Source: an uncultured Bacilli bacterium (GTDB lineage: Bacteria; Bacillota_I; Bacilli_A; RF39; UBA660). Taken from it: a stretch of 64,000 bases of DNA. The stretch is from the NCBI GenBank assembly GCA_934096805.1, contig CAKOMW010000002.1, positions 139,736 to 203,735 of the forward strand. Reading direction: 5' to 3'. Under the pieces are notes generated by a model. It was not told where the DNA came from. It saw only the letters and a program-made list of their open reading frames with translations, and did no database searches. Position numbers and translations under genes: made by a program. This document shows, one piece after another, positions 24,990 through 48,644 of this stretch. The first letter of the stretch is position 1, and each line of letters starts with the position of its first letter.

Positions 24990-25000
24990 CTTTGCAACAC

Positions 25001-25029: not shown

Positions 25030-25060
25030 TAAATTATACAAAATAAGGAGGTTACTTTAT

Positions 25061-25834: not shown

Positions 25835-25885
25835 TATAATTAAATACGAATATTTTATAAAATTATTATGCTTATAATTTAAATC

Positions 25886-25911
25886 AAGATGGATAATCCA
25901 TCCATCTTTTT
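25886..25911 (+). terminator. rho-independent terminator
   Basis: aagatggat-aatcc-atccatctt + ttttaa. Confidence 0.6.
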
Positions 25912-26297: not shown

Positions 26298-26744
26298 TTA
26301 CTCAATTTGACTAGTTATGTCTTTACTAGTAATATTAAATTTAATGTGATTTTCAACTACTCCAGAATAGAAATATAACTCATATATTTCTTTTTTAGTA
26401 ATATTATACTCTAATATATATGGTACAGTTTGATTATTTTTTATTATATTACTATTGTTAATATAAGTATTAGGTACTTGTACTTTATTGATATCATAAA
26501 GTTTAAAAGACTTATCACTATCAATAGTAATAGTGCTGCCAGTTTTATTAGTTATGTTTAATTTAATGTTTAGTTTTTTATTAGTTTCATCATATATGAC
26601 TTCATATATTTTCAAGTTAATTTTATCTGCAGTTGCATCTTCATTAACTGAATATTCTGGTTTTATTGGTATCTTTTTATCGCATCCTATTACAAGTAAA
26701 CAAACAGACAAAGCAATTAACGAGATTAAAATTTTTTTAATAAT
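26298..26744 (-). CDS. lipoprotein (GTG start, lipobox LVIGC)
   Basis: extended N-terminus VILLKKILISLIALSVCLLVIGCDKK with RBS gggag. Confidence 0.5.
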   Translation of the reverse strand: MIKKILISLIALSVCLLVIGCDKKIPIKPEYSVNEDATADKINLKIYEVIYDETNKKLNIKLNITNKTGSTITIDSDKSFKLYDINKVQVPNTYINNSNIIKNNQTVPYILEYNITKKEIYELYFYSGVVENHIKFNITSKDITSQIE

Positions 26745-26772
26745 ATCACGCTCCCTTTTTTATTATATTTTT

Positions 26773-27942: not shown

Positions 27943-27953
27943 GCTATTCCTCC

Positions 27954-32270: not shown

Positions 32271-32993
32271 TTAGTCTTCTTCTAGGTTATGATATACATC
32301 TTGAACATCTTCGATTTCTTCTAAAGCATCAATAAGTTTATATATTTTTTCTTTCTTTTCATCATCAAGAGCTACAGTCATACTTGGAATGAATCTTACT
32401 TCATTCATTATTTTTTCTTCAATACCAGCTTCTTCTAAAGCCTTATTCATATTGATAAAGTTTTCAAATGTTGTATAAATAACATATGAGTCTTCTTCAG
32501 TAATAAAATCGATAGCATCATTATTAAGGGCTATCATCATTACTTCATCTTCATCGTAAGTCTTAGGAAGAACAATAATGCCTTTTTTCTCAAACATATA
32601 GCTAACAGAGCCGTCAGTACCTAAATTACCACCACGTTTAGTAAAGGCTGCCCTTACCATACTAGCAGTTCTATTCCTATTATCAGTCAAACAATCAACC
32701 ATAACTGCCACTCCATTAGGCCCATATCCTTCATACCTTACTGATTCATAGTTTGTAGAATCATTCATATTGTGTGCTTTATCAATTGCTGCTTGTATCC
32801 TATCCTTAGGCATATTTTCTGCTTTAGCTTTATCAATAATCATTCTAAGTGACGGATTGTTATCAGGGTTTTTGTCTCCTCCTTTAGCAGCCACATAGAT
32901 TTCTTTAGCTAATTTTTGAAAGATTTTACTTCTCTCAGCATCTATTAATCCCTTTTTCCTTTTAATTGTTGCCCATTTTGAATGTCCACTCAT
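32271..32993 (-). CDS. YebC/PmpR family DNA-binding transcriptional regulator
   Basis: MSGHSKWATIKRKK N-terminal signature and full-length colinearity. Confidence 0.85.
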   Translation of the reverse strand: MSGHSKWATIKRKKGLIDAERSKIFQKLAKEIYVAAKGGDKNPDNNPSLRMIIDKAKAENMPKDRIQAAIDKAHNMNDSTNYESVRYEGYGPNGVAVMVDCLTDNRNRTASMVRAAFTKRGGNLGTDGSVSYMFEKKGIIVLPKTYDEDEVMMIALNNDAIDFITEEDSYVIYTTFENFINMNKALEEAGIEEKIMNEVRFIPSMTVALDDEKKEKIYKLIDALEEIEDVQDVYHNLEED

Positions 32994-33004
32994 CTTATCA
33001 CTCC

Positions 33005-33709
33005 TTAACTTATTAATTTGATTAACATTGGACCTAGTAGTAGTAAAAGCAGTAATGGTATAAAAAATATTACTGATACTATACTTATTTTTACTGGCAT
33101 CTTACTAATTATTGCTTTTGTTTCTAATACCCTTTTTTCTCTTAAATAATCTATTTGATTATACATAGTTTCAACAATATCATTACCAAAGGTATTAGCC
33201 TGTTCAATATTTAATATAATATTATTCACAGTATCACTAGGAATTCTTTTTCTTAAGTCCTCTAATGAATTATTTAAATCTTTTCCAAGATTAATATCTT
33301 TTAATACCTTTTGTATTTCAACTGATAAAGAAGAATCAATGTTTTTAGAAGTAATTTCTAAAGATGTTTTTATGCTCCTACCTGCCTCTAGAGAAAGAGC
33401 AAATACTTCAAAAAAATATAAAGCATCTTTTTCTATTACTTTTCTTCTTTCATTAATCTTAGTATCTAGTACAATAGGAACAAAGAGTACATACACTAAA
33501 AAAGCAATAATTGGTGCAAGTATGTAACCAAAATCCAAGAAATATAATACCACAAAAAATACTAAAATAGAAGATATTAATCTAATATTTAGCAACTTTA
33601 TAGGGTCAGTATTAGAATCTATACCTAGATAAGCTACTTTTTTTTGCATATTTTCAATCTGTCTTTCACTATAAATTTTGTATTCAACTGTTCTTTTATT
33701 TCCTTTCAT
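33005..33709 (-). CDS. Tad/type II secretion platform protein (TadC-like, T2SSF domain)
   Basis: 3 TM segments, T2SSF-like central domain; paired with the upstream TadB-like gene. Confidence 0.6.
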   Translation of the reverse strand: MKGNKRTVEYKIYSERQIENMQKKVAYLGIDSNTDPIKLLNIRLISSILVFFVVLYFLDFGYILAPIIAFLVYVLFVPIVLDTKINERRKVIEKDALYFFEVFALSLEAGRSIKTSLEITSKNIDSSLSVEIQKVLKDINLGKDLNNSLEDLRKRIPSDTVNNIILNIEQANTFGNDIVETMYNQIDYLREKRVLETKAIISKMPVKISIVSVIFFIPLLLLLLLGPMLIKLIS

Positions 33710-33710
33710 G

Positions 33711-34712
33711 TTACCACTCTCTTATCTTTACGATTTTTTTAACTAATATAATATACACTATATATATTAAAATAATTGATATTAATATTATATTTCCTAT
33801 AACTGAAGTAATAAATGTTACAAAGTAAGTTGGATCTAAAAAATAAATAAATATAAATATTAAAAACGGAATAGCAACAAGTACTTTAAAGACAAAATTT
33901 GATAAAGCAAGTGTTGACTCCATTTCGTCTTTTATTCTTTTTCTTTCGATAAAGCTTCTTTCTATTGAAGAGAAAATTTTTGTAATTTTCCCTCCAGTTT
34001 GATTTAAAATAACTAGAGATGAAGCCATATATTTTACTTCTTCCAATTTTACACGTGAAGCAAATCTATCAAATACCACTTGTAAATCAAGTCCATATGT
34101 TAAATCAATTAAGATTTTCTTAAATTCATTACTAATAGGGCCTTCTAATTCAGTTGAAACAAGTTCTACAGCTTGCATAATACTTCTTCCTGATTTAAAA
34201 GCATTATTCATAATAATTACAGCCTTTAAAAAATCTTGTTCTATTCTTTTTTTCATTCTTTTTTCTTTTATTTTTAAGAAAACATCTAGAATAAAGAACC
34301 CTATTAAGAGTGATGCTGTTATTTGAATAAAACTAAACATTTTAAACTTTAATATATTTGATATAATCATAAGTAAAACTGCACATATTGAAAATAATAT
34401 TTTTTTTGATACAAAGTCTAAACTTGTTTCTTTGTACCTACTATCAACTTCTACAAATTTTTCATATCGTTTGCTATAATCAGTTAATATTTTACTTTTA
34501 CTAATTTTTTTACTAATTCCTTTAATTAAACTATAATAAATACTTTGAACTTTTAAAGTAAAAGAAGTTGGTTTATCTGATAAGGCTGTAATTGAAAAGT
34601 TTATAATTCTTTTCTCTTTTTTAATAGAGGTAAGTATTTTAAGAGTTATTATAAAAGCAATAATTACTACTAATATTAGTAATACTTGGATAGCTATATA
34701 TAAACTTTTCAT
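33711..34712 (-). CDS. Tad/type II secretion platform protein (TadB-like, T2SSF domain)
   Basis: N-terminal TM, T2SSF domain (FLKAVIIMNNAFKSGRSIMQAVELV), C-terminal TM bundle. Confidence 0.6.
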   Translation of the reverse strand: MKSLYIAIQVLLILVVIIAFIITLKILTSIKKEKRIINFSITALSDKPTSFTLKVQSIYYSLIKGISKKISKSKILTDYSKRYEKFVEVDSRYKETSLDFVSKKILFSICAVLLMIISNILKFKMFSFIQITASLLIGFFILDVFLKIKEKRMKKRIEQDFLKAVIIMNNAFKSGRSIMQAVELVSTELEGPISNEFKKILIDLTYGLDLQVVFDRFASRVKLEEVKYMASSLVILNQTGGKITKIFSSIERSFIERKRIKDEMESTLALSNFVFKVLVAIPFLIFIFIYFLDPTYFVTFITSVIGNIILISIILIYIVYIILVKKIVKIREW

Positions 34713-34724
34713 ATTATTCCTCCT

Positions 34725-36059
34725 TTAAACTAGTCTTTCAAAGATATCATCAACGGTTTTAACACCTTTGCTTTTTATTTTTTTATATACTTTAGGTATG
34801 TATTTATATAAAACAAATGAACCGTTTACTTCCCCAGAGTCTGTTAATCCTTTTTCTTTGAAAGCAAATATTTCTTTTAGAATTATTTTACCTTCTCTTA
34901 TTCCTGTAACTTCACTAATTGAAGTTATTTTTCTTTTTCCATCAGATAATCTTTCAATATTTACAACGATGTCTATAGCATTTTCTATATATTCTCTAAT
35001 TGCTAATACAGGTATTTGAATACCAGCCATTAAAACCATTGTTTCTAGACGATTAAGGGCATCTTCTGCTCCATTGGCATGAAGAGTTGATAAAGAGCCT
35101 TCATGTCCTGTGTTCATGGCTTGTAGCATGTCAAATGCTTCTTTTCCACGCACTTCTCCAACAATTATACGATCTGGTCGCATACGAAGGGAATTTATTA
35201 CTAAATCACGAATAGTTACTTCTCCTTCTTTTTCATAGTTCATTGTTCTTGTTTCTAAAGAAATAACATGATTTTGTTTTAATTTTAACTCAGCAGCATC
35301 TTCAATAGTAATAATTCTTTCTTCATCAAGTATGAATGATGATAGAACATTTAAAACAGTAGTTTTTCCAGAACCTGTACCACCACATACTAAAATATTT
35401 AACTTAGCCATAACACAGGCTTCCAAAAATCTAGCCATATATGGAGTAAAAGTACCATTTCTAATTAAGTCATCCGCACTAGATAAGTTTTCCTTAAACT
35501 TTCTTATAGTAAGCACTGGTCCATTTAAAGCAAGTGGTGGAATAATAGCATTTATTCTCGAACCATCACTAAGTCTAGAATCAACCATGGGATTAGCTAT
35601 ATCAATAGTTCTTCCAAGAGGTTGAATCATCCTTTGAATAGTTCTTATAATATGTTCATCATTAATAAATGAAACAGATTCATCTTTTATTATTTTACCA
35701 TCTATTTCAATGTATATTTCATCAGGGGCATTAACCATTATTTCAGTAATGCTTTTATCATCTAAAAGCTCAGTAATTGGACCATAACCATTTATTTCAT
35801 TTTCAATTAAGTTAAAAATATGATTTCTTTCTAAATTAGTTAAGTCATATCCTTCCAAAGTAGTATTAATTTCATCATTTATATAATCATTTAAGTATTT
35901 ACCAGTTGGTATATCATTATCTATTATATTTTGAATAATTTTATTTCTCAAAGAATCTAATAAGTTTTTGTCTTTAAAGACACTGTAATCATTTATATCA
36001 GTATTAATATTTCTATTTTTATTTTCAATTTCAAATAGTTCAGAAAGTGTTTTTCTCAT
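34725..36059 (-). CDS. CpaF/TadA-type secretion ATPase (VirB11/GspE superfamily)
   Basis: Walker [12 protein letters not shown], Asp box, His box; 444 aa. Confidence 0.8.
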
Positions 36060-36814
36060 TATTGCACCTCCTTATTATAAAGTTTCTTAGCAATTAGACC
36101 AAAGTGTTTTAAATCTTTTTTAGAAGAAAAGCCATTTGCTAGAATTGGTATTAAGCCTGATGCTACTATCTTATCTAGTTTATTTATATATAGTGTTTTT
36201 GGTAATGTAAAATCAATATTATTTTTTATAATACTTCTTATATCAAATGTTGTATAATAGCTTTTATTCATAATAGATTCATTTAAGACTGTATAATAAT
36301 TATCGAATGAAGCATCTTTTAGTATTGATATAAAAGTTCTTGTATTTTTTAAAGAATATAAATCATTTGATAAAAGAACTAAAATATTATCGCAATTATC
36401 AAGTAAAATGATATTAATTTCATTAAGAATATGAGTTGTATCAAGTAAAATAACATCATATTTATATAAAACAGTATTAAGAATTAAAGGAATATATTTA
36501 GAGTCAATTTTATTAGCTTGTCTTGGGTCTTTTACTGAAGAGATTATATCTATATTTTCATTATAGTTATAGATATAGTCCTCAACTTTTTCATATCTAT
36601 TATTTGATAAATCTTCTACTAAATTAAAGATAGTTTTATCTGCTTTCATGTTTAAAGAAAGAGCAATATCTCCCCCGAACAAATCAAAATCAATAATCAA
36701 AACTTTATAACCAAGTAAATGATAAGTTCCTGCAAGATTAAGAGTAGTAACAGTCTTCCCTACTCCTCCTTTTGCAGAAGTAACTGCAATTATTTTTCCT
36801 TTATCTTTTTTCAT
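36059..36814 (-). CDS. CpaE-like ParA/MinD-family ATPase
   Basis: deviant Walker A SAKGGVGKTVT. Confidence 0.65.
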   Translation of the reverse strand: MKKDKGKIIAVTSAKGGVGKTVTTLNLAGTYHLLGYKVLIIDFDLFGGDIALSLNMKADKTIFNLVEDLSNNRYEKVEDYIYNYNENIDIISSVKDPRQANKIDSKYIPLILNTVLYKYDVILLDTTHILNEINIILLDNCDNILVLLSNDLYSLKNTRTFISILKDASFDNYYTVLNESIMNKSYYTTFDIRSIIKNNIDFTLPKTLYINKLDKIVASGLIPILANGFSSKKDLKHFGLIAKKLYNKEVQ

Positions 36815-36826
36815 ATTTAACCCTCT

Positions 36827-37144
36827 TTATTCTAAATTAACTTCTAAATGATATTTTTTTATTCCTATTATATTTCCAAATATTGAATCTATTTCTTTTT
36901 TTAAATGGATTCCTCCATAAGAAATACTTACTATTTCAATATCTTTGTCATTATCTTTTATTATTTTTTTTATTTCATTTAAATCCTTATTCTCTTTTTC
37001 ATATTCCATAGCAAGTTCTCCGACATTATTTAATTTAGTATTATTTATAGCTATGTAACAAGTATCAAAAACATATGCAAAAAGTGCAATAACAAGTGGT
37101 AATAAAAATACGAAGAGCACTAATGCCTGAGCTTTATTATTCAT
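36827..37144 (-). CDS. TadE/Flp-type prepilin-like protein
   Basis: MNNKAQALVLFVFLLPLVIALFA; shares the NNKAQALV N-terminal motif with two neighbours. Confidence 0.55.
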   Translation of the reverse strand: MNNKAQALVLFVFLLPLVIALFAYVFDTCYIAINNTKLNNVGELAMEYEKENKDLNEIKKIIKDNDKDIEIVSISYGGIHLKKEIDSIFGNIIGIKKYHLEVNLE

Positions 37145-37484
37145 TTAATATTACCCTTTCAGTACTTATTTCATAAGGATTATTGAAAAAAGTTGATGCA
37201 AATGGTGTGATTAAATCAATCTTAGTTGTAAGTGTAATTGTACTTTTATTATTATTATTTTTGTAACTCAATGTAACATCCTTTGGCAAAGTGCTTTTTA
37301 TTTCTTCGTAACTTTTACCTTTTTGTTTGTAAAGTGCTACATCATTCATCATACCTTCCAAAGTATTTTTATTGTAAAAGACAAAAGCAAAGTCTATTAC
37401 AATAAATAAAATCATGATAATTATTGGTAGCAAAATAACAAACTCTACAAGAGCTTGGGCCTTGTTATTTATTCTTTTCAACAC
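37137..37484 (-). CDS. TadE-like pseudopilin (probable GTG start with RBS ggagaagg)
   Basis: (M)LKRINNKAQALVEFVILLPIIIMILFIV; the ORF-track start at 37526 lies inside the preceding gene. Confidence 0.5.
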   Translation of the reverse strand: MLKRINNKAQALVEFVILLPIIIMILFIVIDFAFVFYNKNTLEGMMNDVALYKQKGKSYEEIKSTLPKDVTLSYKNNNNKSTITLTTKIDLITPFASTFFNNPYEISTERVILNE

Positions 37485-37674
37485 AGTACCCTTCTCCAGC
37501 TTTGGCACCTTTATGATATTCTTCACCTACTAAAGCACAGGAAGATTTAGTAATTGAATCTTTTAAATATCCTCCTAGAAAAGTTACTAATGATATAGCA
37601 AGCACACTAATTAAAGCAATTATTAAAACGTATTCTACTAATGCCTGAGCTTTGTTATCTAATCTCATATACAA
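37465..37674 (-). CDS. Flp-type pilin
   Basis: 69 aa, MYMRLDNKAQALVEYVLIIALISVLAISLV; xxxEY Flp motif followed by a hydrophobic helix. Confidence 0.6.
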   Translation of the reverse strand: MYMRLDNKAQALVEYVLIIALISVLAISLVTFLGGYLKDSITKSSCALVGEEYHKGAKAGEGYCVEKNK

Positions 37675-37756
37675 TCACCTATTTTCCTACATTAATTTTA
37701 TTATTTTTTTTGCTTGTTGTCAATTGAATTCTAATAAAAAGTGATATAAAATATAA

Positions 37757-38083
37757 ATGAAGGGATTTGATTTTATGTTTTTAATACTTAATAAAGATAA
37801 AAAGCTTAAAATTAATAGAATTAATAAAATAAAAGGCTTAATGTTTAAAAAAGAGGCAATAAATGAAGGATACATATTTTATAACTGTGGTAGCATTCAT
37901 ACTTTTTTTATGAAACAAGAAATAGATGTTATAGTAATAGACAAAGATAATAAAATAGTAAAAATGAAAAGTAACTTTAAAAAAAATAAAATCTTAATAT
38001 CTAAAGGTACAACTACTTTAGAACTTCCTCTTAATACTTGTAAATATTTCAAATTAAATGATAAAATAAAAATAATAGATTAA
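37757..38083 (+). CDS. DUF192-like small protein
   Basis: 108 aa, weak similarity to the COG1430/DUF192 fold; opposite strand to the pilus genes. Confidence 0.35.
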   Translation: MKGFDFMFLILNKDKKLKINRINKIKGLMFKKEAINEGYIFYNCGSIHTFFMKQEIDVIVIDKDNKIVKMKSNFKKNKILISKGTTTLELPLNTCKYFKLNDKIKIID

Positions 38084-38087
38084 TTTA

Positions 38088-39270
38088 AGACAAAAAAAGA
38101 AATAGAAATAATCTATTTCAATTGGTTTAGTTCCTCTAATGAAAGACCTGTACATTCTGAAATATCAGTAATATCATAACCTTTTTGAAGCATTTTAAGT
38201 GCAGTTTCTTTGATGCCTTCATCATGTCCTATATCGTGTCCTTCTTTAAAGCCTTTTTCTCTGTACTCATCAATTTCCGCTAAACGAAGCTTTTCATCAT
38301 GTAACTCTTTATCATACATTCCTATTACTTCATCTTGTTCACTTGCTTCTTTTGATTCTTTAACATACTTTTCCATTATCTCATCACCCTTACTTAAATC
38401 TTTAAGAAGTTGATTATCATTTTCATTAAATATTAATAATAACTTCTCATATAGTTTAAGTTTATTATAATCTTTTTTTCTTATATTTGGCAAGTATATA
38501 TTAATAATTCTTATCTTATTACTATATATTTGAAAATCATTAATATCTTTGGGTATATGATTAATATTTGTTATATAGCATTCTTCTAGAACATCTTTTC
38601 TACCTCTGAATCTAAAGTTATTTATGTTTATTTGAATTACTTCATTAAAGTTATACTTCTTTCCTCTTTTCATATTTGCACTATATAAAGAAAACATATA
38701 ACCTAGATTTCTTTCTAAACTAGACTTTGAAGTATTATTATTAACTTCAACATTAAGTATCTTACCTTTAATCTTACACAATAAATCTACTGTCTTATTA
38801 CTTTCTTCATTTTTATACTTATCTATATTATTTTTTATAAACTTAGTATTTTTTAATACCTCATTATAATCCTCATTAAATATAGAAGCAATTAAATAAC
38901 AGATATACTCCATTCTAGATTCATTATTAATCATAGTCTTAAACATAGAATCAGATACAATTGGTATTTTATAGCCTTTGTAATAGTCAAGTAACTTATA
39001 ACTATTTGTTTTAGATATTTCTTTATCTAAAGTACATTCTCTAAGATCTAACATAATTTTCACCTCCTTTCATAGAAATATTTACCCCTTTTCTAATTCA
39101 ATATATACCATATAAAAACGCAATGCAAATGAACAATTTTAAGTTTTAAATACACAAAAAAGAACCAAAACAGATATTTTCCTTAAGGGAATTTTCTTAT
39201 TTGATTCTTATTTTTTTATTAAAAATATTGTTTTATATAGAATTTAAAAAACTTATACTTTTTAATTACT
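38088..39270 (-). mobile_element. Rpn-family element copy 2 (subfamily II)
   Basis: same leader (39064-39270) and 3' hairpin gaaatagaaataatctatttc (38099-38119) + T-run as the other copies. Confidence 0.6.
38113..39054 (-). CDS. Rpn/YhgA-like PD-(D/E)XK nuclease / putative transposase, subfamily II
   Basis: IPIVSDSMFKTMINNE, VDLLCKIKGKILNVEVNNN, C-terminal GFKEGHDIGHDEGIKE...TGLSLEELNQLK; ATG 7 nt after aggaggtg. Confidence 0.6.
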   Translation of the reverse strand: MLDLRECTLDKEISKTNSYKLLDYYKGYKIPIVSDSMFKTMINNESRMEYICYLIASIFNEDYNEVLKNTKFIKNNIDKYKNEESNKTVDLLCKIKGKILNVEVNNNTSKSSLERNLGYMFSLYSANMKRGKKYNFNEVIQININNFRFRGRKDVLEECYITNINHIPKDINDFQIYSNKIRIINIYLPNIRKKDYNKLKLYEKLLLIFNENDNQLLKDLSKGDEIMEKYVKESKEASEQDEVIGMYDKELHDEKLRLAEIDEYREKGFKEGHDIGHDEGIKETALKMLQKGYDITDISECTGLSLEELNQLK

Positions 39271-40420
39271 TTTTTAATTTTGTTCCTTTTATTTTATCAT
39301 ATTGTTCTAATAAGTTACCAGGAGTCGTTTTTATAATTTTTTCTTCCTCTTTTTTATTGTCTATAGCAATTGATACCAAATTATCAAATAATTCAGTTTG
39401 ATTCTTTTTCTTAGGCAACCACATATAACCAGCAAGAGAACCTGGAATAGTATTAATTTCATTGACATATATCTCTTTTGTTTTATCATTTATTAAAAAG
39501 TCAATTCTAGCAACGCCACTGCCTTCAAGTACCTTAAATGTCTTTATAGCATATTCCTTTATATCATTTATCATCTCTTTAGATATAAGAGGTTTAGTTT
39601 TCTTTGTATCAACTTCAGTTTTAGAAAAATTATTAACATACTTTTCTTTAAAAGAATAAAACTCACTACTAGAATTTATTTCTTCTATTTCAGATACAAT
39701 TTGTTTTTTATAATTACCAAGTACACTTACATTTACTTCTTTTAAGTTAGGTATTCTTTCCTCAACAATAATTTTTCTATCATATTTTGAAACATTTTTA
39801 ACTTTACTAAAAAATTCTTTTTCATTTTCTGCGATTTCTATTCCAATACTTGAACCAAGTGAAGATGGTTTGATAAATACAGGAAATTTCAAAGTAGCTA
39901 ATTTCTTTTCAACAAGCTTTTTATCACTTAATTCATCAGAATAAAACCAAGTATAGTTAGCAACATTTATATCATTCGTAGTCAATAATTGTTTTTGAAT
40001 AACTTTATCTTGTCCAATGGCCGCTCCAATGACACTAGGACCAGCATATGGGACTCCTAACATATTAAGATAGCCTTGTATAGAGCCATCCTCTAAATAC
40101 GCACCATGACCAATTGGCACAACTAAATCAATTACACATAAATTCTTTTTATAAAATCCTAGTCTTTGTAAAACAAAAGTCTTATCATATTTAACTAAAG
40201 CAACTTTTTTAGCATATCTCTTTACCAAATCAATATCCCTATAATGAAGAATGTTTTTTAGATGCTCTCCTGTGTACCACACATTATCTTTATCTATATA
40301 TATAGGTATTATTTTATACTTGCTTTCATCAGCATAACCCATTGCTTCAATTGCCGAAATTATGCTTATTTCATGTTCGACACTTTTTCCTCCAAAAATA
40401 ACTGCAACATTTAATCTCAT
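39266..40420 (-). CDS. ddl: D-alanine--D-alanine ligase
   Basis: MRLNVAVIFGGKSVEHEISIISA and ATP-grasp motifs (EERIPNLKEVNVSVLGN, NEINTIPGS). Confidence 0.85.
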   Translation of the reverse strand: MRLNVAVIFGGKSVEHEISIISAIEAMGYADESKYKIIPIYIDKDNVWYTGEHLKNILHYRDIDLVKRYAKKVALVKYDKTFVLQRLGFYKKNLCVIDLVVPIGHGAYLEDGSIQGYLNMLGVPYAGPSVIGAAIGQDKVIQKQLLTTNDINVANYTWFYSDELSDKKLVEKKLATLKFPVFIKPSSLGSSIGIEIAENEKEFFSKVKNVSKYDRKIIVEERIPNLKEVNVSVLGNYKKQIVSEIEEINSSSEFYSFKEKYVNNFSKTEVDTKKTKPLISKEMINDIKEYAIKTFKVLEGSGVARIDFLINDKTKEIYVNEINTIPGSLAGYMWLPKKKNQTELFDNLVSIAIDNKKEEEKIIKTTPGNLLEQYDKIKGTKLKK

Positions 40421-40474
40421 CTTATTACTTCCTTTCATTAATAGTATATCAAATTATTAGAAAAAGAAAAAGTG

Positions 40475-41221
40475 CTATTCTGCAACTTGTTCTCCTTTTA
40501 TCTTAACTTTAAACTGATAATTAGTATTACTTGAAGAAACTACTGCGTGAGAACTACCCCATACTTCTCCAGCAGCCGTACATGTAGCTTTTGTTGTATA
40601 AGTAGTATCACTACATACCATATCTTTTTCCTCAGTATTTAACTTTATATCATTATTTCCATTTCCACTTACCCAAGCTTTTAGGACATATGATGCTTTA
40701 TCAGTCTTAGAAAATACTCCATCATCTAGTACAAATTCATTAAAGAACCCATTACTAGATACTTTAGATTGTAAACTTGAAATAGCAACACCAGTAGTAG
40801 CAGTACCTATAATATATTCTTGTTTCTCTGTACCATTTTCAGTATATTTTTTTAGTAAATTAATTTTCACATCGTCACTTGTTATCCCTTCATTACTAAT
40901 GATATCCAAACCTAAATCATATTTTAATATAGCTTCTCCATTAATAGTAGAAACTACATCAAAAGTATATGCTTTATCATCAGTAATACTTGTACCAACT
41001 GCATCAGTAACAGGCTTTTGATCACTTAAAATCATAGCTTTTTCGTTTGCAAAATTAAGTTCTAACTTACCAGAAATAAGTTCATTTTCACTAGTTCCGA
41101 TGAAATTAGCATAATAGTAGGCAAAAGTAGAGCCTAAGACCACTAATACTAAGATAATTGTAGATATAATAACTATCATTTTATCCTTTTTTGATTCTTT
41201 TACTTGTTCCATATATAACAC
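40475..41221 (-). CDS. short member of the surface-protein paralog family (N-terminal module only)
   Basis: anchor KMIVIISTIILVLVVLGSTFAYYYANFIG and YVLKAWVSGN motif shared with copies A, B and C; lacks the lectin-like C-terminus. Confidence 0.5.
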   Translation of the reverse strand: MLYMEQVKESKKDKMIVIISTIILVLVVLGSTFAYYYANFIGTSENELISGKLELNFANEKAMILSDQKPVTDAVGTSITDDKAYTFDVVSTINGEAILKYDLGLDIISNEGITSDDVKINLLKKYTENGTEKQEYIIGTATTGVAISSLQSKVSSNGFFNEFVLDDGVFSKTDKASYVLKAWVSGNGNNDIKLNTEEKDMVCSDTTYTTKATCTAAGEVWGSSHAVVSSSNTNYQFKVKIKGEQVAE

Positions 41222-41338
41222 CTTACCTTATACTTAAATCTTACTAAAAAGTTACAAAAATGTCAATATAACAACAACTATTTTTTAAAAAGTTTTGTCT
41301 AGTAAAAAGAAAAAAGTCCCAAAAAGGAACTTAAACAA

Positions 41339-41563
41339 TTATTTAACTTCATCAACTTTTGCAATCATCTTTAAGATTTCTTCAATTTCTTCATCATCAG
41401 TTACAGAAGTAACAAATTTTTTACCATCAGCAACAGTTTCTCTTAAAACTGTATAATCATTCGTATCATCAAGAGCATAAGCATATATATAGTTATACCC
41501 GAAAAAATTAACTCTTTCTACCACTAGAAATTCTCTACCATCCAATATAATTATTTCATTCAT
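41339..41563 (-). CDS. DUF1292 (YrzB-like) small acidic protein
   Basis: 74 aa, FLVVE...YIYAYALDD...EEIEEIL pattern typical of DUF1292. Confidence 0.5.
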   Translation of the reverse strand: MNEIIILDGREFLVVERVNFFGYNYIYAYALDDTNDYTVLRETVADGKKFVTSVTDDEEIEEILKMIAKVDEVK

Positions 41564-42072
41564 AAGCTTTTTCCACCATTATTCAAATTATTCTCAACAA
41601 AGTTTGCAAGTTCCCCACTTTGAACTACTTGCTCATAATTTTCTTTACTTGGAGCAAAGTAATTACCAGTTGTCTCGGTCATATAATTACAAAATTCTAA
41701 AAAGTCATCATATGTAGTTGTTGTTTGTTCTACTTGAGGAGCATCAGGGATATCAACGACATCAGAAGAATTTTCAGTCATTACTTTATTTACATGATTT
41801 ACTCCAAGAACTCCACCACCAATAATTGCAATTGATAATACTGCCGCTAAAGCTTTTTTACGTGCATCTTTAAACTTAGCTGCCACTCTCTGATTATATT
41901 CTTCTGCTCTTGCTTTATCTTCCTCAATTAATTTAGCAATTCTTTGATTTTGTAACTCAACAAACTCATCTAGCTGTTTTTTATTATCTCTATTTACAAA
42001 TATACGCTTTGTTTCATCATACGAGATAACTAATTCTTCTTGTTTTTCAAAATTTTTATAGTTATTTTGCAT
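41560..42072 (-). CDS. hypothetical single-pass membrane protein
   Basis: coiled-coil N-terminus, TM AAVLSIAIIGGGVLGV; stop overlaps the DUF1292 start. Confidence 0.45.
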   Translation of the reverse strand: MQNNYKNFEKQEELVISYDETKRIFVNRDNKKQLDEFVELQNQRIAKLIEEDKARAEEYNQRVAAKFKDARKKALAAVLSIAIIGGGVLGVNHVNKVMTENSSDVVDIPDAPQVEQTTTTYDDFLEFCNYMTETTGNYFAPSKENYEQVVQSGELANFVENNLNNGGKSL

Positions 42073-42159
42073 TAAGCATTACCTCCATTCACATTATAGC
42101 ATAATAATTTATAATTGGAAATACCTTTAAGAAAAAAAGACTTAATCAAAAGTCTTTAA

Positions 42160-45135
42160 TTAGCATTTATATTCATAAGTTTTTTTAGTTATGGAAGTCT
42201 TTTTGCTACTACAAGTTGAATATGTTTTAGTAGCTCCTTGTCTTCCACTTGTAGAACAACTAGACACATTACTTGTTGAAGATGTATAGTTTCCATATCT
42301 AGAACATGATTCTTCACATTTTTGCATCTTGCACTTTCTTTTAGTACCAGTACCAGACCAGTAATATTTATATAAATTTTTAGTAGAAGAAGTACAATAC
42401 TTTATAGATACACCTGAACTACAATAACGAGTAGCCGCGTTTGATGAAGAACCCCAACTATAATCATGTCCTGTACAACTTCCAGTATAAGTAGTTTTTA
42501 CATAATATGATGATGAACTACAAGTAACTTTAGTAGAACCGTCATTTGTTTCTCTACAACTACTAGGATATGTAGTGCTAACTAATTTCCAAGTTTTAGT
42601 ACATGGTTGATGATATGTCTTAGATTTAGTAGCAGTATTTCCTACAACATCCTTACATTTAGCAGTTACTGTACCACCTGTTGTATTAAAATGACTTGTA
42701 TATGATTCCCCACTTGGAGAAGTAATACTTTTTGTATCAACACCACTTCCAGAGTCTGTACATGTAAATGAAATCTTAGTTGAACCTTTTATTTCAGTTT
42801 TTTCTGGCGAAATAGTAATAACTGGGTCTTTCTTGTCTATTTTCATACTAAATTTAGCAGAAGTAGCTTTATTTCCAGCGTTGTCTACACAAGTAGCAGT
42901 TACCGAATCAGTCCAATTTGAACCATCACTCACTTTAGTAGTGAAATAACTATGTACAGTATCTCCTGTTGAAGGACTTACCATTGATTTTGATTTTACA
43001 CCACTTGTAGCATCAGCAGCACTTAATGATACTTTAATATCAGACATAGTCCATTTACCTGAAGTATATTTACTATTATCTTTAGTTTTAGTACCACTTA
43101 AAGTACAAGTTGGTGGTGTTTTATCTAATTTAGCAACATATGTAACATAGCCACTACATTTTTTAGTATTATTTCCACGACATGCTTTAGCATAATAAGT
43201 AGTAGATGATGTCTCTGTACTTACTGAAGGTTTAGTTGTACTATATATATTATTAGCAGAAGTACCATAATAATATGTTACATTTGAACCACTTCCACTT
43301 GCTTCCAAAGTGTAATCAGCTTTATGCCATTTACCACTTGAAATACTATCACTTGCTGCCAGTGTTGGAGCATCAGGTGCTTTTTCCTCAATTTGATTAA
43401 TATAAGTACTACAATTAGCAGTGTTTCCAACCTCACTTTTAACATGTAAATAATAGAAACCATTTTCATCAACTGTATTATAAACTGTTTGATAATGTTC
43501 ACTTGTATTCATAAAATAACTAGGATCAGAATAACCATTTGTCCAAAGATATCCACTAAGACCAACCTCATCCCTCATTGTACCTGTAAGAGTAGCAGAA
43601 GTCTTATCCTCATCATAAGTAACAGTAATATTGCAACTTGGCATTTTACTCTTATCAACCATTTTTACGTTATCACTATTTATAACACCATTTCCATTAT
43701 TACCAACATTATCTTTTATATTCTTAGTATCAAAACTTAAATATGCATAAGCACCATCTTTATTTTTTTCATAAGCTTTTATTATAAAATTATTAGAAGT
43801 ACTTAAATTTGATACATATTCTATTTTACTAAAATCAGTATAAGTTACATCTGATATATTAAACGAACTCTTATCAATACCATTTGTATCACTACAAGAT
43901 AAACTATAAACTACATAATCAGTTATATTATCTGAAATATCTAATTGTGTTTTTAATGAAGTAAGATTAAAATCTGAATATGGTCCTTTAAACACACATA
44001 CTGGACCAGTATTATCAATAATAAGACCTGCACTATCACTAACCATATCATTACCATTATCATATTCATCATATATTTGATTAGCATTATATTTTAATTT
44101 AAATATTCCATCACTTTCATTAATGACAACTTTTATAATTGCACTTACCTTTTTTTCACTCACATACTGCTTATTAGAACTAGTGTTTACAACAACATCA
44201 CTTTTAGAATCAAAACCTTCTTTTTTAATAAAGCCATTAATTTTACTATCATCATCGCAAGTAATTTTATAATATACAGACTCACCGTTTTTAGCAATAT
44301 TCTTTAAAGTATTTAGACCTGCATCAGCATAAGCTCTAGATAACTTACAACTTGGCCCTTTCCCATCAATTTCTATCCCTAGTTCTACTTGAACATTTGG
44401 AATAGCACTTCCTTTGTATTTACTAGTAATAGAGTTTTCATTAAACTTTACTTTACCTTCTCCAAAAGCATCAGAAGATGAAGTATAAGTACCCACTACT
44501 TTAAATTGTTTCTTTTTAGAATCAATATACTCTTTTGATGTATTAGAATCTTCTAAAGATGAATATGTTCCATTAGTAGTACTAAACATATCATACAAAT
44601 TATTTTTAACAACATTTATATCTTTTCCTTTACAAGCCAATGTCACATTAGCAATATTCTTTCCTTGTTTTACTCCAATTTTCTTTTTATCACTAGTAAA
44701 ATTACAACTTAATACATTATCAAAGTTTTCTGTACAAACTTTATTACCCTTAGTATTAGTATAACCATTATCACATACTACACATCCTGTATATTTATAA
44801 CCATTACCAGACTTAGTCATATATACATAACTTTTACTACAAGAATTTCCTTTTGCATCCTTTAAATCATTTGAAATATAATTATTTGATTTTAGATACG
44901 TATACCACAAAACAATATTACCATCTTCATCAGTATTAGATATAATTTTTCTTTTATTATCACTGAAATAACTCTTAGCAGAAAGAACTAAACTTCTTTC
45001 TAATTGATCATTAACAGTATTATGTCCTTGTATTATGTATCTATTAATAACTAATATGGCAAGAGTTAATAATATTCCTACAATCACTAAAGCTACAAGT
45101 AATTCTATTATTGTAAAACCTTTTCTTTTCTTCAT
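42160..45135 (-). CDS. giant type IV prepilin-like protein (991 aa) with Ig-like repeats and Cys/Ser/Thr-rich C-terminus
   Basis: MKKRKGFTIIELLVALVIVGILLTLAILV canonical G/FTxxE prepilin signal; repeated DxxGN Ig-like motifs (TATCVDNAGNKAT, TAKCKDVVGNTAT). Confidence 0.65.
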   Translation of the reverse strand: MKKRKGFTIIELLVALVIVGILLTLAILVINRYIIQGHNTVNDQLERSLVLSAKSYFSDNKRKIISNTDEDGNIVLWYTYLKSNNYISNDLKDAKGNSCSKSYVYMTKSGNGYKYTGCVVCDNGYTNTKGNKVCTENFDNVLSCNFTSDKKKIGVKQGKNIANVTLACKGKDINVVKNNLYDMFSTTNGTYSSLEDSNTSKEYIDSKKKQFKVVGTYTSSSDAFGEGKVKFNENSITSKYKGSAIPNVQVELGIEIDGKGPSCKLSRAYADAGLNTLKNIAKNGESVYYKITCDDDSKINGFIKKEGFDSKSDVVVNTSSNKQYVSEKKVSAIIKVVINESDGIFKLKYNANQIYDEYDNGNDMVSDSAGLIIDNTGPVCVFKGPYSDFNLTSLKTQLDISDNITDYVVYSLSCSDTNGIDKSSFNISDVTYTDFSKIEYVSNLSTSNNFIIKAYEKNKDGAYAYLSFDTKNIKDNVGNNGNGVINSDNVKMVDKSKMPSCNITVTYDEDKTSATLTGTMRDEVGLSGYLWTNGYSDPSYFMNTSEHYQTVYNTVDENGFYYLHVKSEVGNTANCSTYINQIEEKAPDAPTLAASDSISSGKWHKADYTLEASGSGSNVTYYYGTSANNIYSTTKPSVSTETSSTTYYAKACRGNNTKKCSGYVTYVAKLDKTPPTCTLSGTKTKDNSKYTSGKWTMSDIKVSLSAADATSGVKSKSMVSPSTGDTVHSYFTTKVSDGSNWTDSVTATCVDNAGNKATSAKFSMKIDKKDPVITISPEKTEIKGSTKISFTCTDSGSGVDTKSITSPSGESYTSHFNTTGGTVTAKCKDVVGNTATKSKTYHQPCTKTWKLVSTTYPSSCRETNDGSTKVTCSSSSYYVKTTYTGSCTGHDYSWGSSSNAATRYCSSGVSIKYCTSSTKNLYKYYWSGTGTKRKCKMQKCEESCSRYGNYTSSTSNVSSCSTSGRQGATKTYSTCSSKKTSITKKTYEYKC

Positions 45136-45199
45136 AACAACCACCTATCCTATAATATAATTGTAACTTAAAAAATAATAAAGTGCAACAAAAAAACTG

Positions 45200-45886
45200 C
45201 TAGTTCTTAAGAATAACAGTTTTTAATTTATTTATAACTTTTTTCTCTATTCTAGATATATAAGATTGACTTATTTTTAATTTATCTGCAACATCTTTCT
45301 GAGTCATTTCAGAATACCCATAAAGACCATATCTTAAACACATTATTTCTTTATCTCTAGAATCAAGTTTTTCTAATTCATTTCTTAATAATTGCTTATC
45401 AAGCTCTTCATCAAGAGGTTTAGTAACTATATCTTTTTCTGTTCCTAAAATATCTTCAAGATGTAGTTCATTTCCATCGGCATCAAAACTCAAAGACTCT
45501 TCAAAAGAAATATCTGTTTTGCTTTTTTTTGTTTTTCTAAGAAACATTAGAATTTCATTATCTATACATCTAGAACAATAAGTAGCTAATCTAATATTTT
45601 TATCTTTAGAAAAAGTGTTAATTCCTTTGATTAATCCTATTGAACCAATACTTACTAAATCCTCTAAATCAACTTTAGTATTTTCATATCTTTTAGCTAG
45701 AAAGACCACTAATCTTAAGTTGTGTTCAATTAACTTGTTTCTAGCAGAGTTATCTCCTTTAAAAGATAAATCAATCAGTTTATCTTCTTCCTCTCTTTCA
45801 AGTGGAGGAGGTAAAATATCCGTTGCACCTACATAAAAGATATTATTTTTTCTAAATAATCTTTTTAAAAATATTATAAACTTCAC
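45200..45886 (-). CDS. sigE: RNA polymerase sporulation sigma factor SigE (pro-sigma-E); GTG start
   Basis: YVGATDILPPPLEREEEDKL pro-sequence junction, LIEHNLRLVVFLAKRYEN, DLVSIGSIGLIKGINTF, ISQSYISRIEKKV; colinear with B. subtilis SigE. Confidence 0.85.
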   Translation of the reverse strand: MKFIIFLKRLFRKNNIFYVGATDILPPPLEREEEDKLIDLSFKGDNSARNKLIEHNLRLVVFLAKRYENTKVDLEDLVSIGSIGLIKGINTFSKDKNIRLATYCSRCIDNEILMFLRKTKKSKTDISFEESLSFDADGNELHLEDILGTEKDIVTKPLDEELDKQLLRNELEKLDSRDKEIMCLRYGLYGYSEMTQKDVADKLKISQSYISRIEKKVINKLKTVILKN

Positions 45887-45889
45887 TGT

Positions 45890-46003
45890 ATCATCTCCCT
45901 ATGCAAAATTATATCAACATCTCCTAGTAAAAATTTGTCATTTGATAAACCAATTAATACATTATATTTATAACCAATATCTTTTATGAATATTTTATCA
46001 ATA
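45890..46003 (-). pseudogene. duplicated 3' end of spoIIGA (114 bp, 2 mismatches versus 47875-47988) retained directly upstream of sigE
   Basis: seen directly; encodes ...IDKIFIKDIGYKYNVLIGLSNDKFLLGDVDIILHREMIQ* whose TGA overlaps the sigE GTG; contains the sigE RBS agggag. Confidence 0.8.
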
Positions 46004-47210
46004 ATATTCACTTTTTATTCATAAAAACAAAAGAAATAGAGATTAATCTATTTCAATTTTTGTAGTTCATCTAATGAAAGACCTGTATATTTGGAAACAA
46101 CTTCTAAATCAACATTATCTTGAATCATTTGTTTAGCTATGCTTACTCTTTCTTCTTTTCTGCCTTCGCTACGACCTTGTTGTATTCCTTGTTGTATTCC
46201 ATTCTCATTAGCTTCTCTTATCTCTGATTTTCTTAATCTTTCTTCGTGTAACTCCTTATCATACATGCCTATTACTTCATCTTCTTCACTTGCTTTTCTA
46301 GAATCATCAATATATTCTTTCATAATCTTATCACCCTTACTTAATTCATTAAGAATATTATTATCATTTTCATTAAATACTAATAATAACTTCTCATATT
46401 CCTCAAGTTTATTATAATCTTTTTTTCTTATATTTGGCAAGTAAATATTATAAATATGTATTTTATTTGTATACACTTCTTCACTGTCTTTTAGATTAAC
46501 TATCATATACTCATCTAATACTTCGTTTTTATCTTGAAATGTAAAGTTATTTATGTTAATTTGAATACAAGTTTCAAAGAAATAATCATCTCCTTTAGTC
46601 ATTCCACCATTATATAATGAAAACATATAACCTAGATTTCTTGCTAAACTTGTCTTGGATGCATTTTTATTCATTTCTACATTGACTACTACATCATCTA
46701 TTCTACATAAATAGTCTACTGTCTTTCTAGATTTATTTTCTTTTTCTTCATCTATATTAGCTTTTATTAAAGTAGTATTATTATAGATTTCATTAAAGTC
46801 TTTCTTTAGTAGAAGTGCAATTAAATAGCATCCATATTTCTTTCTTGATTCATTATAAAACATTGTTCTAAACATTGCATCTGATACAATTGGTATCTTA
46901 TAACCTTCATATCTTTTTTCAAGTTCATAGGCATCTTTTTCAGACATAGCTTTATCTAAAACAGCTTTCTTATTACCAATAAGATTCATACTTTTCCCTC
47001 CTTTCAAAACCACTATATACCATATAAAAACACAATGCAAATGAGTAATTTTAAGTTTTGAACATAGAAAAAAGAACCAAAATAGGTATTTCACTTAAGG
47101 GAATTTTTTATTTTGATTCTTATTTTTTATCAAAAATATTGTTTTATATATAATTTAAAAAACTTATACTTTTTTATTCTTTTTATAAGTATCAATCAAT
47201 ACTTAGAGTG
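46004..47210 (-). mobile_element. Rpn-family element copy 3 inserted between spoIIGA and sigE
   Basis: 3' hairpin gaaatagagattaatctatttc 46033-46054 + T-run; leader 46990-47210 including ttataagtatcaatcaatacttagagtg. Confidence 0.65.
46048..46989 (-). CDS. Rpn/YhgA-like PD-(D/E)XK nuclease / putative transposase, subfamily I
   Basis: about 95 percent identical to 16547-17488 and 61874-62827 except in the C-terminal G-rich repeat region (GIQQGIQQGRSEGRKEERVSIAKQ). Confidence 0.65.
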   Translation of the reverse strand: MNLIGNKKAVLDKAMSEKDAYELEKRYEGYKIPIVSDAMFRTMFYNESRKKYGCYLIALLLKKDFNEIYNNTTLIKANIDEEKENKSRKTVDYLCRIDDVVVNVEMNKNASKTSLARNLGYMFSLYNGGMTKGDDYFFETCIQININNFTFQDKNEVLDEYMIVNLKDSEEVYTNKIHIYNIYLPNIRKKDYNKLEEYEKLLLVFNENDNNILNELSKGDKIMKEYIDDSRKASEEDEVIGMYDKELHEERLRKSEIREANENGIQQGIQQGRSEGRKEERVSIAKQMIQDNVDLEVVSKYTGLSLDELQKLK

Positions 47211-47868: not shown

Positions 47869-47870
47869 AA

Positions 47871-48644
47871 CTACATCATCTCCCTATGCAAAATTATATC
47901 AACATCCCCTAGTAAAAATTTGTCATTTGATAAACCAATTAATACATTATATTTATAACCAATATCTTTTATGAAGATTTTATCAATAAAAAAACATTTC
48001 ATCAAACCATTGCCACTTATAGTATTATAGGGAACGTATATATACTTATCACTTTCTAAATTAATATTTTTATTAAGCACTAAAATAGGTTTATCAAAAT
48101 ATGGGTCATATAAATTATTACCAGTATCTAAATAACCAATTAAATTTAAAATATCAGAGCCATTATATAAAGTAACACTATAAAGATTAGATAAATTATT
48201 CTTATAACTTTTACTAAGACGAACATACAAAACTATTATAAAAATAGAAACCATTAAAATTAAAATATTATTTAAAGAAAAACCATTAGTAAAGAAAATA
48301 ACTCCCGAAGATGCTTCCCCTCTTTCAATATTAATTAAATATAAAGAACCACCAAGAATAATAGAAAGCACTATTAAATAAACAAGATTAATAAATGTAT
48401 ATTTAATACTTTTATAAGAAAAAGTAATTATAAGCATAACAATTCCTAAAAACATTTTAATAAAAAAGAATAGTAACCCTCCAATAGATAAAAAAAGAAT
48501 AAAAACAGATAATCCTCCAAACAAAGCACCAAGTATTATTCTTTTTAACTTAGCATTTCTTTTTAAAATAGTATTTATTCCATAAAGAATAATAAAATCA
48601 AATAAAAAATTAATAAAAAAAACATAATCTAAGTATATAGTCAT
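47871..48644 (-). CDS. spoIIGA: sigma-E processing peptidase SpoIIGA
   Basis: MTIYLDYVFFINFLFDFIILYGINTILKR N-terminus and aspartic protease motif GYLDTGNNLYDP, both colinear with B. subtilis SpoIIGA. Confidence 0.8.
   Translation of the reverse strand: MTIYLDYVFFINFLFDFIILYGINTILKRNAKLKRIILGALFGGLSVFILFLSIGGLLFFFIKMFLGIVMLIITFSYKSIKYTFINLVYLIVLSIILGGSLYLINIERGEASSGVIFFTNGFSLNNILILMVSIFIIVLYVRLSKSYKNNLSNLYSVTLYNGSDILNLIGYLDTGNNLYDPYFDKPILVLNKNINLESDKYIYVPYNTISGNGLMKCFFIDKIFIKDIGYKYNVLIGLSNDKFLLGDVDIILHREMM

Follow-up and report, generated by a model that had tools for sequence, protein, structure and literature searches.

We analysed a window of 64 kb, i.e., the whole stretch taken from contig CAKOMW010000002.1 (positions 139,736 to 203,735) of an uncultured Bacilli bacterium of the RF39 lineage, in which the minus strand carries the genes of a Tad/Flp-type pilus and, 4.5 kb further on, a gene encoding a type IV prepilin of 991 amino acids (aa), hereafter called the giant (Table 1). 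The genes of the region 33005-37674, on the minus strand, form a compact Tad (type IVc) operon of the standard monoderm type. The giant is a member of the modular-pilin class and belongs to a lineage-specific family that is probably independent of the Tad operon. The window has a guanine plus cytosine content of around 26%. For comparison, we used 61 related Tad loci recovered by CpaF similarity (labelled from L001 upward) and 80 lineage loci (L090-L169) obtained from a scan of metagenome contigs with a lineage PilB-like ATPase as query. The CpaF relatives are 66-79% identical and represent more than 60 species; the nearest CpaF in a one-genome-per-species set is 79% identical, and the two closed genomes found among the top matches measure 1.20 and 1.34 Mb. 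Human-gut metagenome contigs, Hadza samples included, contain the identical CpaF protein, and the contigs with exact CpaF and SigE matches reach 0.2-1 Mb.

Table 1. Features of the Tad operon, of the giant prepilin gene and of their neighbours in the window.
Feature	Position	Strand	Description
tadC	33005-33709	-	platform protein, 234 aa; one T2SSF domain (Pfam E 6.6e-16); in 56/61 related loci
tadB	33711-34712	-	platform protein, 333 aa; one T2SSF domain (Pfam E 5.4e-11); in 59/61 related loci
tadA/cpaF	34725-36059	-	secretion ATPase, 444 aa; Pfam T2SSE E 3.6e-62
tadZ/cpaE-like	36059-36814	-	ParA/MinD-type ATPase, 251 aa; AAA_31 E 4.7e-19; in 61/61 related loci
tadF-like minor prepilin	36827-37144	-	105 aa; leader MNNKA then QALVLF; Pfam TadE weak (E 0.046)
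tadE minor prepilin	37137-37484	-	115 aa from GTG at 37484; leader MLKRINNKA then QALVEF
flp major prepilin	37465-37668	-	67 aa; leader MRLDNKA then QALVEY; C-terminal Cys pair; Flp_Fap E 4.7e-5
sigma-A-like promoter	37695-37723	-	TTGACA-17-TAAAAT, upstream of flp; 11/12 consensus match
giant modular type IV prepilin	42160-45135	-	991 aa; leader MKKRKG then FTIIELLV; N_methyl and TIGR02532
sigma-A-like promoter	45160-45188	-	TTGCAC-17-TACAAT, within the 55 nt that separate sigE from the giant gene; read from sequence
DUF192 gene	37757-38083	+	divergent from flp; Pfam DUF192 31.1 bits (threshold 27)
Rpn-family (PDDEXK_2) gene	38113-39063	-	recombination-promoting nuclease or putative transposase; TIGR01784 67 bits
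sigE	45200-45886	-	neighbour, outside the system; best NCBIfam match SigE, 313 bits

All 61 relatives recovered from the lineage have the operon with its genes in the same order, and most of its junctions in the window overlap or leave at most 12 nucleotides (nt) between two genes. The first-pass annotation, which had been made from the letters of the window, described here a Tad/Flp-like locus with three prepilins of the class III type. Family matches and orthology bear this out, and all the Tad genes that it listed are present on the minus strand, at the positions that it gave. The number of prepilins stands as well, and their kind can be stated more precisely: one is a Flp major pilin and the two others are minor pilins of the TadE/F type. 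The TadA ATPase has its top NCBIfam match in TIGR03819, the "conjugal transfer-associated" TadA family, with 315 bits, i.e., below the 373-bit equivalog cutoff. The TadZ/CpaE-like ATPase also matches the ParA, CbiA and MinD families and, judged by its length of 251 aa, probably lacks the N-terminal receiver-like TadZ domain.

Concerning the prepilins themselves, TadE reaches 44.3 bits against its Pfam family (threshold 22.9) and an E value of 0.006 against Class_IIIsignal; its open reading frame (ORF) extends up to 37526 (129 aa), and the 115-aa call is that found in L001-L006. The 105-aa ORF is read as a second TadE/F-like minor pilin because of its position and of its orthology, orthologues being detected by BLAST in 16 of the 61 relatives, where the corresponding motif reads GQ[T/S]L[V/I]LF. 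The start of flp is placed at 37668 by the gene callers (67 aa, in an ORF of 69 aa). The Flp protein of the window obtains 23.5 bits against Flp_Fap, under the threshold of 32.2; 24 of the 25 lineage orthologues of Flp match this family, and a profile built from these orthologues finds the solved Tad pilins 8u1k (E 1e-6) and 8u2b (E 8e-6). In the Flp pilins of the lineage, the C-terminus is prolonged by a conserved stretch in which the cysteines C44 and C62 are invariant and which contains the motif GGYLKD...TK.SC...G.KPGEG.C. This Cys pair suggests a loop, possibly closed by a disulfide, that does not exist in the 45-residue chains of the solved Tad pilins. The flp gene is missing from 23 of the 45 related Tad loci that have enough upstream sequence.

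A sigma-A-like promoter lies before flp and another before the giant gene; matches of this kind occur at chance level in AT-rich DNA (125 found in the window for 127 expected from shuffled sequence) and serve as leads only. A weak hairpin is located 3' of the flp stop codon. At the other end of the operon, yebC (YebC/PmpR-family regulator, 32271-32993, minus strand) lies 11 nt after tadC on the same strand, and the first terminator-like site comes after yebC, which is the next gene after tadC in 8 of the 61 relatives.

The gene divergent from flp, of the DUF192 family, is closely coupled to it. DUF192 is found upstream in 19 of the 22 flp-containing related loci and in none of the 23 flp-less ones (Fisher p 6e-10, uncorrected for phylogeny), and it keeps adjoining flp even where other genes intervene between flp and tadE (relatives L008-L062). 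In the Dehalococcoidia and Terriglobia loci (L069, L079, L085), it stands after tadC. The association of DUF192 with Tad was also noted in Bulleidia extructa, like our source organism a member of the small-genome Bacillota, where DUF192 is consistently encoded with the Tad genes; there, the operon starts with tadV and DUF192 lies near its 3' end, whereas the window has no tadV and a DUF192 gene divergent from flp (PMC12786226).

All three prepilins of the operon have an Ala instead of the usual Gly at position -1 of the predicted cleavage site. The first-pass annotation gave them a common N-N-K-A-Q motif. A shared motif does exist (the DNA pattern for N-K-A-Q-A-L-V occurs 3 times in the window for 0 expected from shuffles), but Flp reads D-N-K-A-Q. 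Ala(-1) is fixed for the three prepilins across seven assemblies of the species, among which position -2 of TadE is Lys or Thr, and the spacing to Glu+5 and Tyr/Phe+6 is canonical in Flp (QALVEY) and in TadE (QALVEF). Among 120 Flp homolog clusters, 113 have Gly and 6 (5%) have Ala at position -1, and the clusters 94% identical to the Flp of the window have Gly. Practically all Flp, TadE and TadF proteins of the relatives have Gly at this position, with the exception of the TadE of L021 (Ala); L057 likewise has a GFT-type pilin with Ala(-1). The motif is real and non-random, and it is a tolerated minor allele of Gly. It does not define a separate processing class, given the canonical spacing, the 6 of 120 Flp clusters with Ala and the 94%-identical homologs with Gly. 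An archaeal-like signal class, to which weak Class_IIIsignal and TIGR04205 matches could have pointed, was also rejected, the relatives having Gly and the remaining motif being that of a canonical Flp/TadE. Prepilin peptidases are stated to cleave after Gly or Ala (Imam et al., PMC3244431).

At the nucleotide level, tadF and flp have an identical 17-nt string, AAAGCTCAGGCATTAGT, across the cleavage site, and tadF encodes an Ala at +3 where the relatives have Thr or Ser; tadE uses other codons there. Together, the 17-nt identity and the Ala+3 of tadF suggest a gene conversion between tadF and flp.

The giant most likely starts at the ATG at 45135, which is preceded by AGGTGG and on which the gene callers agree. 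Its N-terminus reads MKKRKG then FTIIELLVALVIVGIL, and its scores are above threshold for both N_methyl (33.7 bits for 21.2) and TIGR02532 (28.6 for 16.3). Its family comprises 31 homolog clusters of 874-1132 aa, 36-46% identical to it, 17 of which align over at least 85% of the query; G6, F7, T8 and E11 are invariant in these 31 homologs and many Cys are conserved. The protein is consequently a type-IVa-like prepilin, as the first-pass annotation had seen. Its pilin head extends to residue ~140 and is followed by about seven Ig-like beta-sandwich domains (~140-845) and by a Cys/Ser/Thr-rich tail (846-991; 7.5% Cys, 22% Ser, 17% Thr) without Pfam signature. In an AlphaFold2 (AF2) model built on the homolog alignment, with a mean predicted local distance difference test score (pLDDT) of 75.7, residues 10-59 form a long N-terminal helix, the head is poorly resolved, the beta-sandwich domains are confident over ~140-845 and the tail is of low confidence. 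A Foldseek search against the PDB returned generic multi-Ig-domain chains (CEA, DSCAM, GhpA fragments, PrgB). The AF2 model, Foldseek and the composition agree on an Ig-like body and a Cys/Ser/Thr-rich tail, both described earlier. The first-pass annotation had also suggested looking for a pilin-tip adhesin architecture; no informative binding module came out of the Foldseek search against the PDB.

The head of the giant has a wide distribution. An exhaustive search of 1.84 billion representatives with the giant retrieved 8 full-length relatives and 1537 matches at E <=0.001; about 58 of the best 150 matches cover only residues 1 to ~140, in proteins of 130-1389 aa. On sequence grounds, this head is a carrier module reused with many cargos. 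Head-only paralogues of 128-132 aa are 47-52% identical to it, and in relatives the giants follow such a paralogue of ~130 aa, in tandem arrays of up to four (L087, L088, L170, L171/L172). Neither machinery genes nor sigE adjoin the giant family in L087, L088, L170 and L171. Arrays of four giant paralogues of ~970-1100 aa each occupy 240-13123 in L088 and 843-13960 in L171; the head-only pilin ahead of the array is 132 aa long in L171 and cut at the locus edge in L088. L087 contains a truncated head-plus-tail variant of 349 aa. Between two strains, the giant is 97% identical and its neighbours 99-100%. The family appears to indicate a rapid modular diversification. The window also encodes another orphan type IV prepilin (230 aa; 7394-8086, plus strand; MNKKG then FTFVELLAV; N_methyl 26.5 bits), whose gene overlaps the start of mutL and whose head is 30% identical to that of the giant.

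The giant had been included at first in the Tad locus. However, the stretch of 4.5 kb that separates it from flp holds unrelated genes (p170, a DUF1292 protein, a 248-aa membrane protein, ddl and the Rpn-family gene), and its family lies elsewhere in L087, L088, L170 and L171, so that it cannot be considered as a part of this locus. One may even ask whether the giant is polymerised at all. Its class III signal could be a cleaved membrane anchor, the Ig stalk spanning the wall and displaying the Cys-rich tip. The long Ig-like string recalls wall-spanning adhesins, no machinery genes adjoin any member of the giant family, one NCBIfam match of TadA is a "bindosome" ATPase, and archaeal sugar-binding proteins carry class III signals without making long filaments. 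Nevertheless, we find such an anchor quite unlikely: the pilin head, including Glu+5, is strongly conserved; the head-only 130-aa paralogues located directly upstream of giants in relatives fit a filament core accompanied by modular variants; and characterised modular pilins do enter pili (PMC8179133). The giant is most likely cleaved by the PilD-type peptidase of the lineage and exposed on a type IV filament, as its tip or as a minor subunit, with a role of adhesin.

The peptidase itself is not encoded next to the operon. No A24 prepilin peptidase gave a motif or hidden Markov model (HMM) match anywhere in the 64-kb window, which agrees with the absence reported at first pass; the search combined the pattern G-x-[G/A]-D-x-K with an HMM for which four TadV-like sequences from distant loci were used. 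Two candidates for a hidden peptidase were discarded, the DUF192 product, a member of a known small beta-fold family, and the 51-aa ORF 37720-37875, both devoid of Asp motifs and of multi-pass membrane topology. The lack of a peptidase at the locus, which had been pointed out as noteworthy, is the normal situation in the lineage, none of the 61 relatives having an A24 peptidase within 10 kb of CpaF. In Bifidobacterium breve, the Tad peptidase is also said to be encoded away from the locus. On the contrary, most tad loci contain a TadV-type peptidase (Imam et al., PMC3244431), and a TadV-like gene is present at the distant Tad loci L073, L077, L078 and L084.

A prepilin peptidase does exist elsewhere in the lineage. 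A PilB-like ATPase lies ~8 kb from the Tad locus in some relatives, and 31 of the 80 lineage loci have an ORF with the motif [S/T/A]-[M/L]-G-[G/D]-G-D-[I/V]-K, convergent with the PilB-like ATPase (210-293 aa, as stop-to-stop lengths, some cut at contig ends). In L108 (10001-14136), the peptidase combines A24_N_bact and Peptidase_A24, and its neighbours are two pilin genes and the gene of a 597-aa PilC that has two T2SSF domains. A second filament system, of the PilB/PilC/PilD type, is therefore present in the lineage, and the PilD-type enzyme is the sole kind of prepilin peptidase seen there. The search for a TadV or PilD enzyme, negative in the window, thus finds a PilD-type one in the lineage, beside PilB/PilC and elsewhere than at the Tad genes; the metagenome scan with the lineage PilB-like ATPase recovered no PilD/PilC locus attributable to the source species. 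The PilD of the lineage may serve the Tad prepilins too, and the source species may have such an enzyme.

In another interpretation, the two components form a single hybrid system: the GFTxxE modular pilins, including the 991-aa protein, would be substrates of Tad, matured by one PilD-type peptidase, and the giants would sit at the tip of the Tad pilus. Both signals can be written as [K/R/N]-[G/A], cleavage, four residues and Glu; no TadV-type peptidase was seen near any Tad locus of the lineage, where the only A24 enzymes found, away from these loci, are of the PilD type; and 23 of the 45 informative Tad loci do without flp. Moreover, GFTxxE-type pilin genes are located within the Tad operon itself in five relatives. 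Those of L062 (4613-8892; 1074 aa, with DUF285 leucine-rich-type repeats) and L014 (7887-8900; 151 aa) stand between flp and tadE, that of L061 (6679-9234; 591 aa) occupies the position of flp, and all three pass N_methyl; those of L055 (1516-4969) and L036 (10001-11840) come after tadA and are assigned on their GFT motif. However, this arrangement is seen in only 5 of the 61 loci, and pilin genes are widely scattered in these genomes, so that some of the insertions in the operon may be incidental. Outside the source species, no member of the giant family was seen closer than 10 kb to Tad or PilB genes, and the complete PilB/PilC/PilD set, with its adjacent pilins, represents the conventional partner of GFTxxE pilins. 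We consider a hybrid system unlikely. Its most developed version, where type IVa-like and Tad filaments would not be sharply separated in the lineage, one Gly/Ala-tolerant PilD would mature both types of prepilins, giants of up to ~1100 aa would be exchangeable Tad tips binding the host or other microbes, and DUF192 would be a hitherto unrecognised accessory factor specific to Flp, seems to us distinctly unlikely.

The nearness of sporulation genes had led the first-pass annotation to propose a sporulation- or spore-associated filament, i.e., the giant, the Tad pilus or both would be under the control of sporulation sigma factors. The window contains genes for SigE (45200-45886), SpoIIGA (47871-48644) and SigK (78-779). 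The giant gene has the same orientation as sigE and begins 55 nt past its stop codon, with no terminator-like hairpin in between; L108 has a 125-aa pilin after sigE and a 305-aa pilin before spoIIGA; and in L063 the spoIIGA-sigE pair lies 3 kb upstream of the Tad genes. However, the slot after sigE is filled differently from one species to another, by an Abi_2 gene in L174 (SigE 91% identical), by a gene for a DUF6273 protein in L173 (SigE 87%) and by that of a 774-aa surface protein in L063; the site is variable and receives surface and accessory genes. The giant family is away from sigE in L087, L088, L170 and L171, and in L173 a giant pilin gene lies upstream of spoIIGA, at a distance of 4.5 kb. 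Of the 61 related loci, one has a true sigE (accompanied by spoIIGA; 62% identity) within 10 kb of Tad, and the sigma matches near Tad in four other related loci show only 24-29% identity. Also, both flp and the giant gene are preceded by sigma-A-like promoters, the first found by a scan for such sites and the second read directly from the sequence.

The local gene order carries marks of rearrangement. Rpn-family copies, with repeated flanks, are present at 16469-17488 (plus strand) and at 38113-39063, 46048-47094 and 61874-62905 (minus strand). The copies 38113-39063 and 46048-47094 bracket the segment going from sigE to ddl, with the direct repeats D1-D3 and D5, and the second of them lies between spoIIGA and sigE, two genes that are normally adjacent. 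The 3' end of spoIIGA is duplicated over 120 nt with 97% identity, at 45885-46004 and 47870-47989, one copy being located just upstream of sigE, on the other side of this Rpn-family gene. The nearness of the giant and Tad genes to sigE looks like a by-product of rearrangement around the Rpn-family repeats, not like sporulation control. Since the slot after sigE varies, the linkage between Tad and sigE is limited to 1 locus in 61 and Rpn repeats bracket the segment, the link with sporulation is unsupported, and we regard a sporulation filament as highly improbable.

The first-pass annotation had also placed a short member of a "lectin" family inside the locus, at 40475-41221. This gene encodes the 248-aa protein of the unrelated 4.5-kb stretch between the operon and the giant gene, and it does not belong to the locus. 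It is one of four genes for membrane-anchored surface proteins, the others being located at 1582-2802 (plus strand), 49720-51150 (minus strand) and 18907-21105 (plus strand), itself on the minus strand. Two paralogues are 70% identical over 322 residues in the C-terminal parts, where a DUF6273 domain is located (21.8 and 24.6 bits in Pfam; threshold 23.5); the 248-aa protein and the 732-aa protein (18907-21105) have only an N-terminal module in common, with 26% identity. The family is that of Pfam DUF6273, a domain that the 248-aa protein does not have, and the "lectin" label is unverified. In L032 (492-3659), a DUF6273 domain is fused to the prepilin N-terminus of a 424-aa pilin of the second system.

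Taken as a whole, we favour the interpretation, with a probability of roughly 70%, that two independent surface-filament components happen to neighbour each other in a small-genome gut Bacillota. The sigma-A-like promoter would drive flp, tadE, tadF-like, tadZ, tadA, tadB and tadC. The three prepilins would insert in the membrane, and an A24 peptidase encoded elsewhere would remove their leaders after Ala(-1), giving new N-termini QALVE[Y/F] or QALVLF, with Glu+5 in Flp and TadE. A TadA hexamer would then drive the TadB/TadC platform so that Flp is polymerised, TadE and TadF acting as priming minor pilins and TadZ as a positioning ATPase, and the product would be an adhesive pilus. As for the giant, a head of ~130 residues would carry an Ig-like stalk of ~700 residues and a Cys-rich tip.

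Several observations weigh against this interpretation. Flp and the TadF-like protein, scored singly, remain under the Pfam curated thresholds; cleavage after Ala(-1) is inferred, not shown by experiment; the peptidase of the source species was not located in the search, which covered the 64-kb window; the AF2 confidence is low for the head of the giant (pLDDT 35-63, residues 1-140); the GFTxxE-type pilin genes of 151-1074 aa lie within the Tad operon in L014, L036, L055, L061 and L062, which makes it less certain that the giant is independent of Tad; and the missing hairpin between sigE and the giant gene makes it possible that the spoIIGA-sigE transcript reads through into the latter.

The function of the Tad-like pilus could also be other than adhesive, and DNA uptake, for transformation or for nucleotide scavenging, could be its main use, as is reported for some Tad systems of bacteria whose genomes are reduced. 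The Tad pili of Liberibacter are reported to be essential for DNA uptake (PMC8513845). The genomes of the relatives have just 1.2-1.34 Mb, and the top NCBIfam match of TadA belongs to the "conjugal transfer-associated" family. On the other hand, neither comEA nor comEC was seen among the ORFs of the window or beside the operon, and the separate PilB/PilC/PilD system could fill the Com role. The sequence does not discriminate between uptake and adhesion, and we hold uptake as the main role to be improbable.

The operon can be compared with several known systems. The monoderm Tad/Flp pili of B. breve and of Clostridia and Bacilli operons (Imam et al. 2011, PMC3244431) have the same core, made of Flp, TadE/TadF, TadZ, TadA, TadB and TadC; like the window, they have no secretin and their Flp motif has Glu+5 and Tyr+6. 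Compared with them, the window has Ala(-1) in three prepilins, the C-terminal extension of Flp with its Cys pair, a 251-aa TadZ and DUF192 coupled to flp, and compared with most tad loci of the same study, no TadV-type peptidase is found near the locus in the 61 relatives. The Tad-like cluster of the TANB77 gut clade (PMC11680825) is also a conserved Tad-type locus of uncultured, reduced-genome human gut Bacillota. It differs by having a CpaB, a TadA of 640 aa, TadB and TadC fused in one protein of 693 aa and several pilin-like proteins of 143-237 aa; in the window, TadB and TadC are separate and the Flp and TadE genes are of the classical kind.

The giant, for its part, resembles the modular type IV pilins PilB (vWA module) and PilC (lectin module) of Streptococcus sanguinis and CofB of enterotoxigenic Escherichia coli (Raynaud et al. 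2021, PMC8179133). Common to both are a class III signal and a pilin module fused to bulky C-terminal modules, presumed to be adhesive, and the reuse of the head with many cargos. With 991 aa (up to 1132 in its family), the giant exceeds the 860-aa maximum of the InterPro survey made in that study. Its cargo differs, being a multi-domain Ig-like stalk with a Cys-rich tail, and the giant genes are orphaned from the machinery, often in tandem arrays of 2-4 behind a head-only pilin. The TadG-type pseudopilins, in which a TadE-like N-terminus is joined to vWA or other domains, present the same idea of a large adhesin-like prepilin associated with a Tad operon, as do L062 and L061. The giant, however, has a GFTxxE/N_methyl N-terminus, not a TadE/G-like one, and lies outside the operon in the window.

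Two other regions of the window can be mentioned. Around 24000-28000, the GC skew and the gene orientation both switch sign near 26 kb, with a positive skew and plus-strand genes before this point, and a negative skew and minus-strand genes after it; a gene for a XerD-like recombinase lies close to the switch, at 27954-28853. Such a switch would fit a replication terminus. At 52410-53990 (minus strand), a gene read from its translation as that of a cytosine-5 DNA methyltransferase-like protein (343 aa) adjoins a 175-aa ORF, which may make up with it a small restriction-modification pair.

Tad pili and modular pilins have an established role in colonisation, and the pilins of other uncultured gut clades with reduced genomes have been tied to effects on host immunity (PMC11680825). 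Here, a clade that metagenomes alone have revealed, and whose genomes measure 1.2-1.3 Mb, proves to have a conserved Tad operon, a second PilB/PilC/PilD system and a repertoire of giant adhesins. This pilin-anchored repertoire is large and fast-diversifying and represents a sizeable investment in surface attachment for a genome so small. Three leads emerge from the comparison, namely, the interchange of Gly and Ala at the cleavage site, the gene pair formed by DUF192 and flp, and the presence of GFTxxE pilin genes within Tad operons. None of them overturns the present understanding, and the Tad operon and the giant both belong to known kinds.

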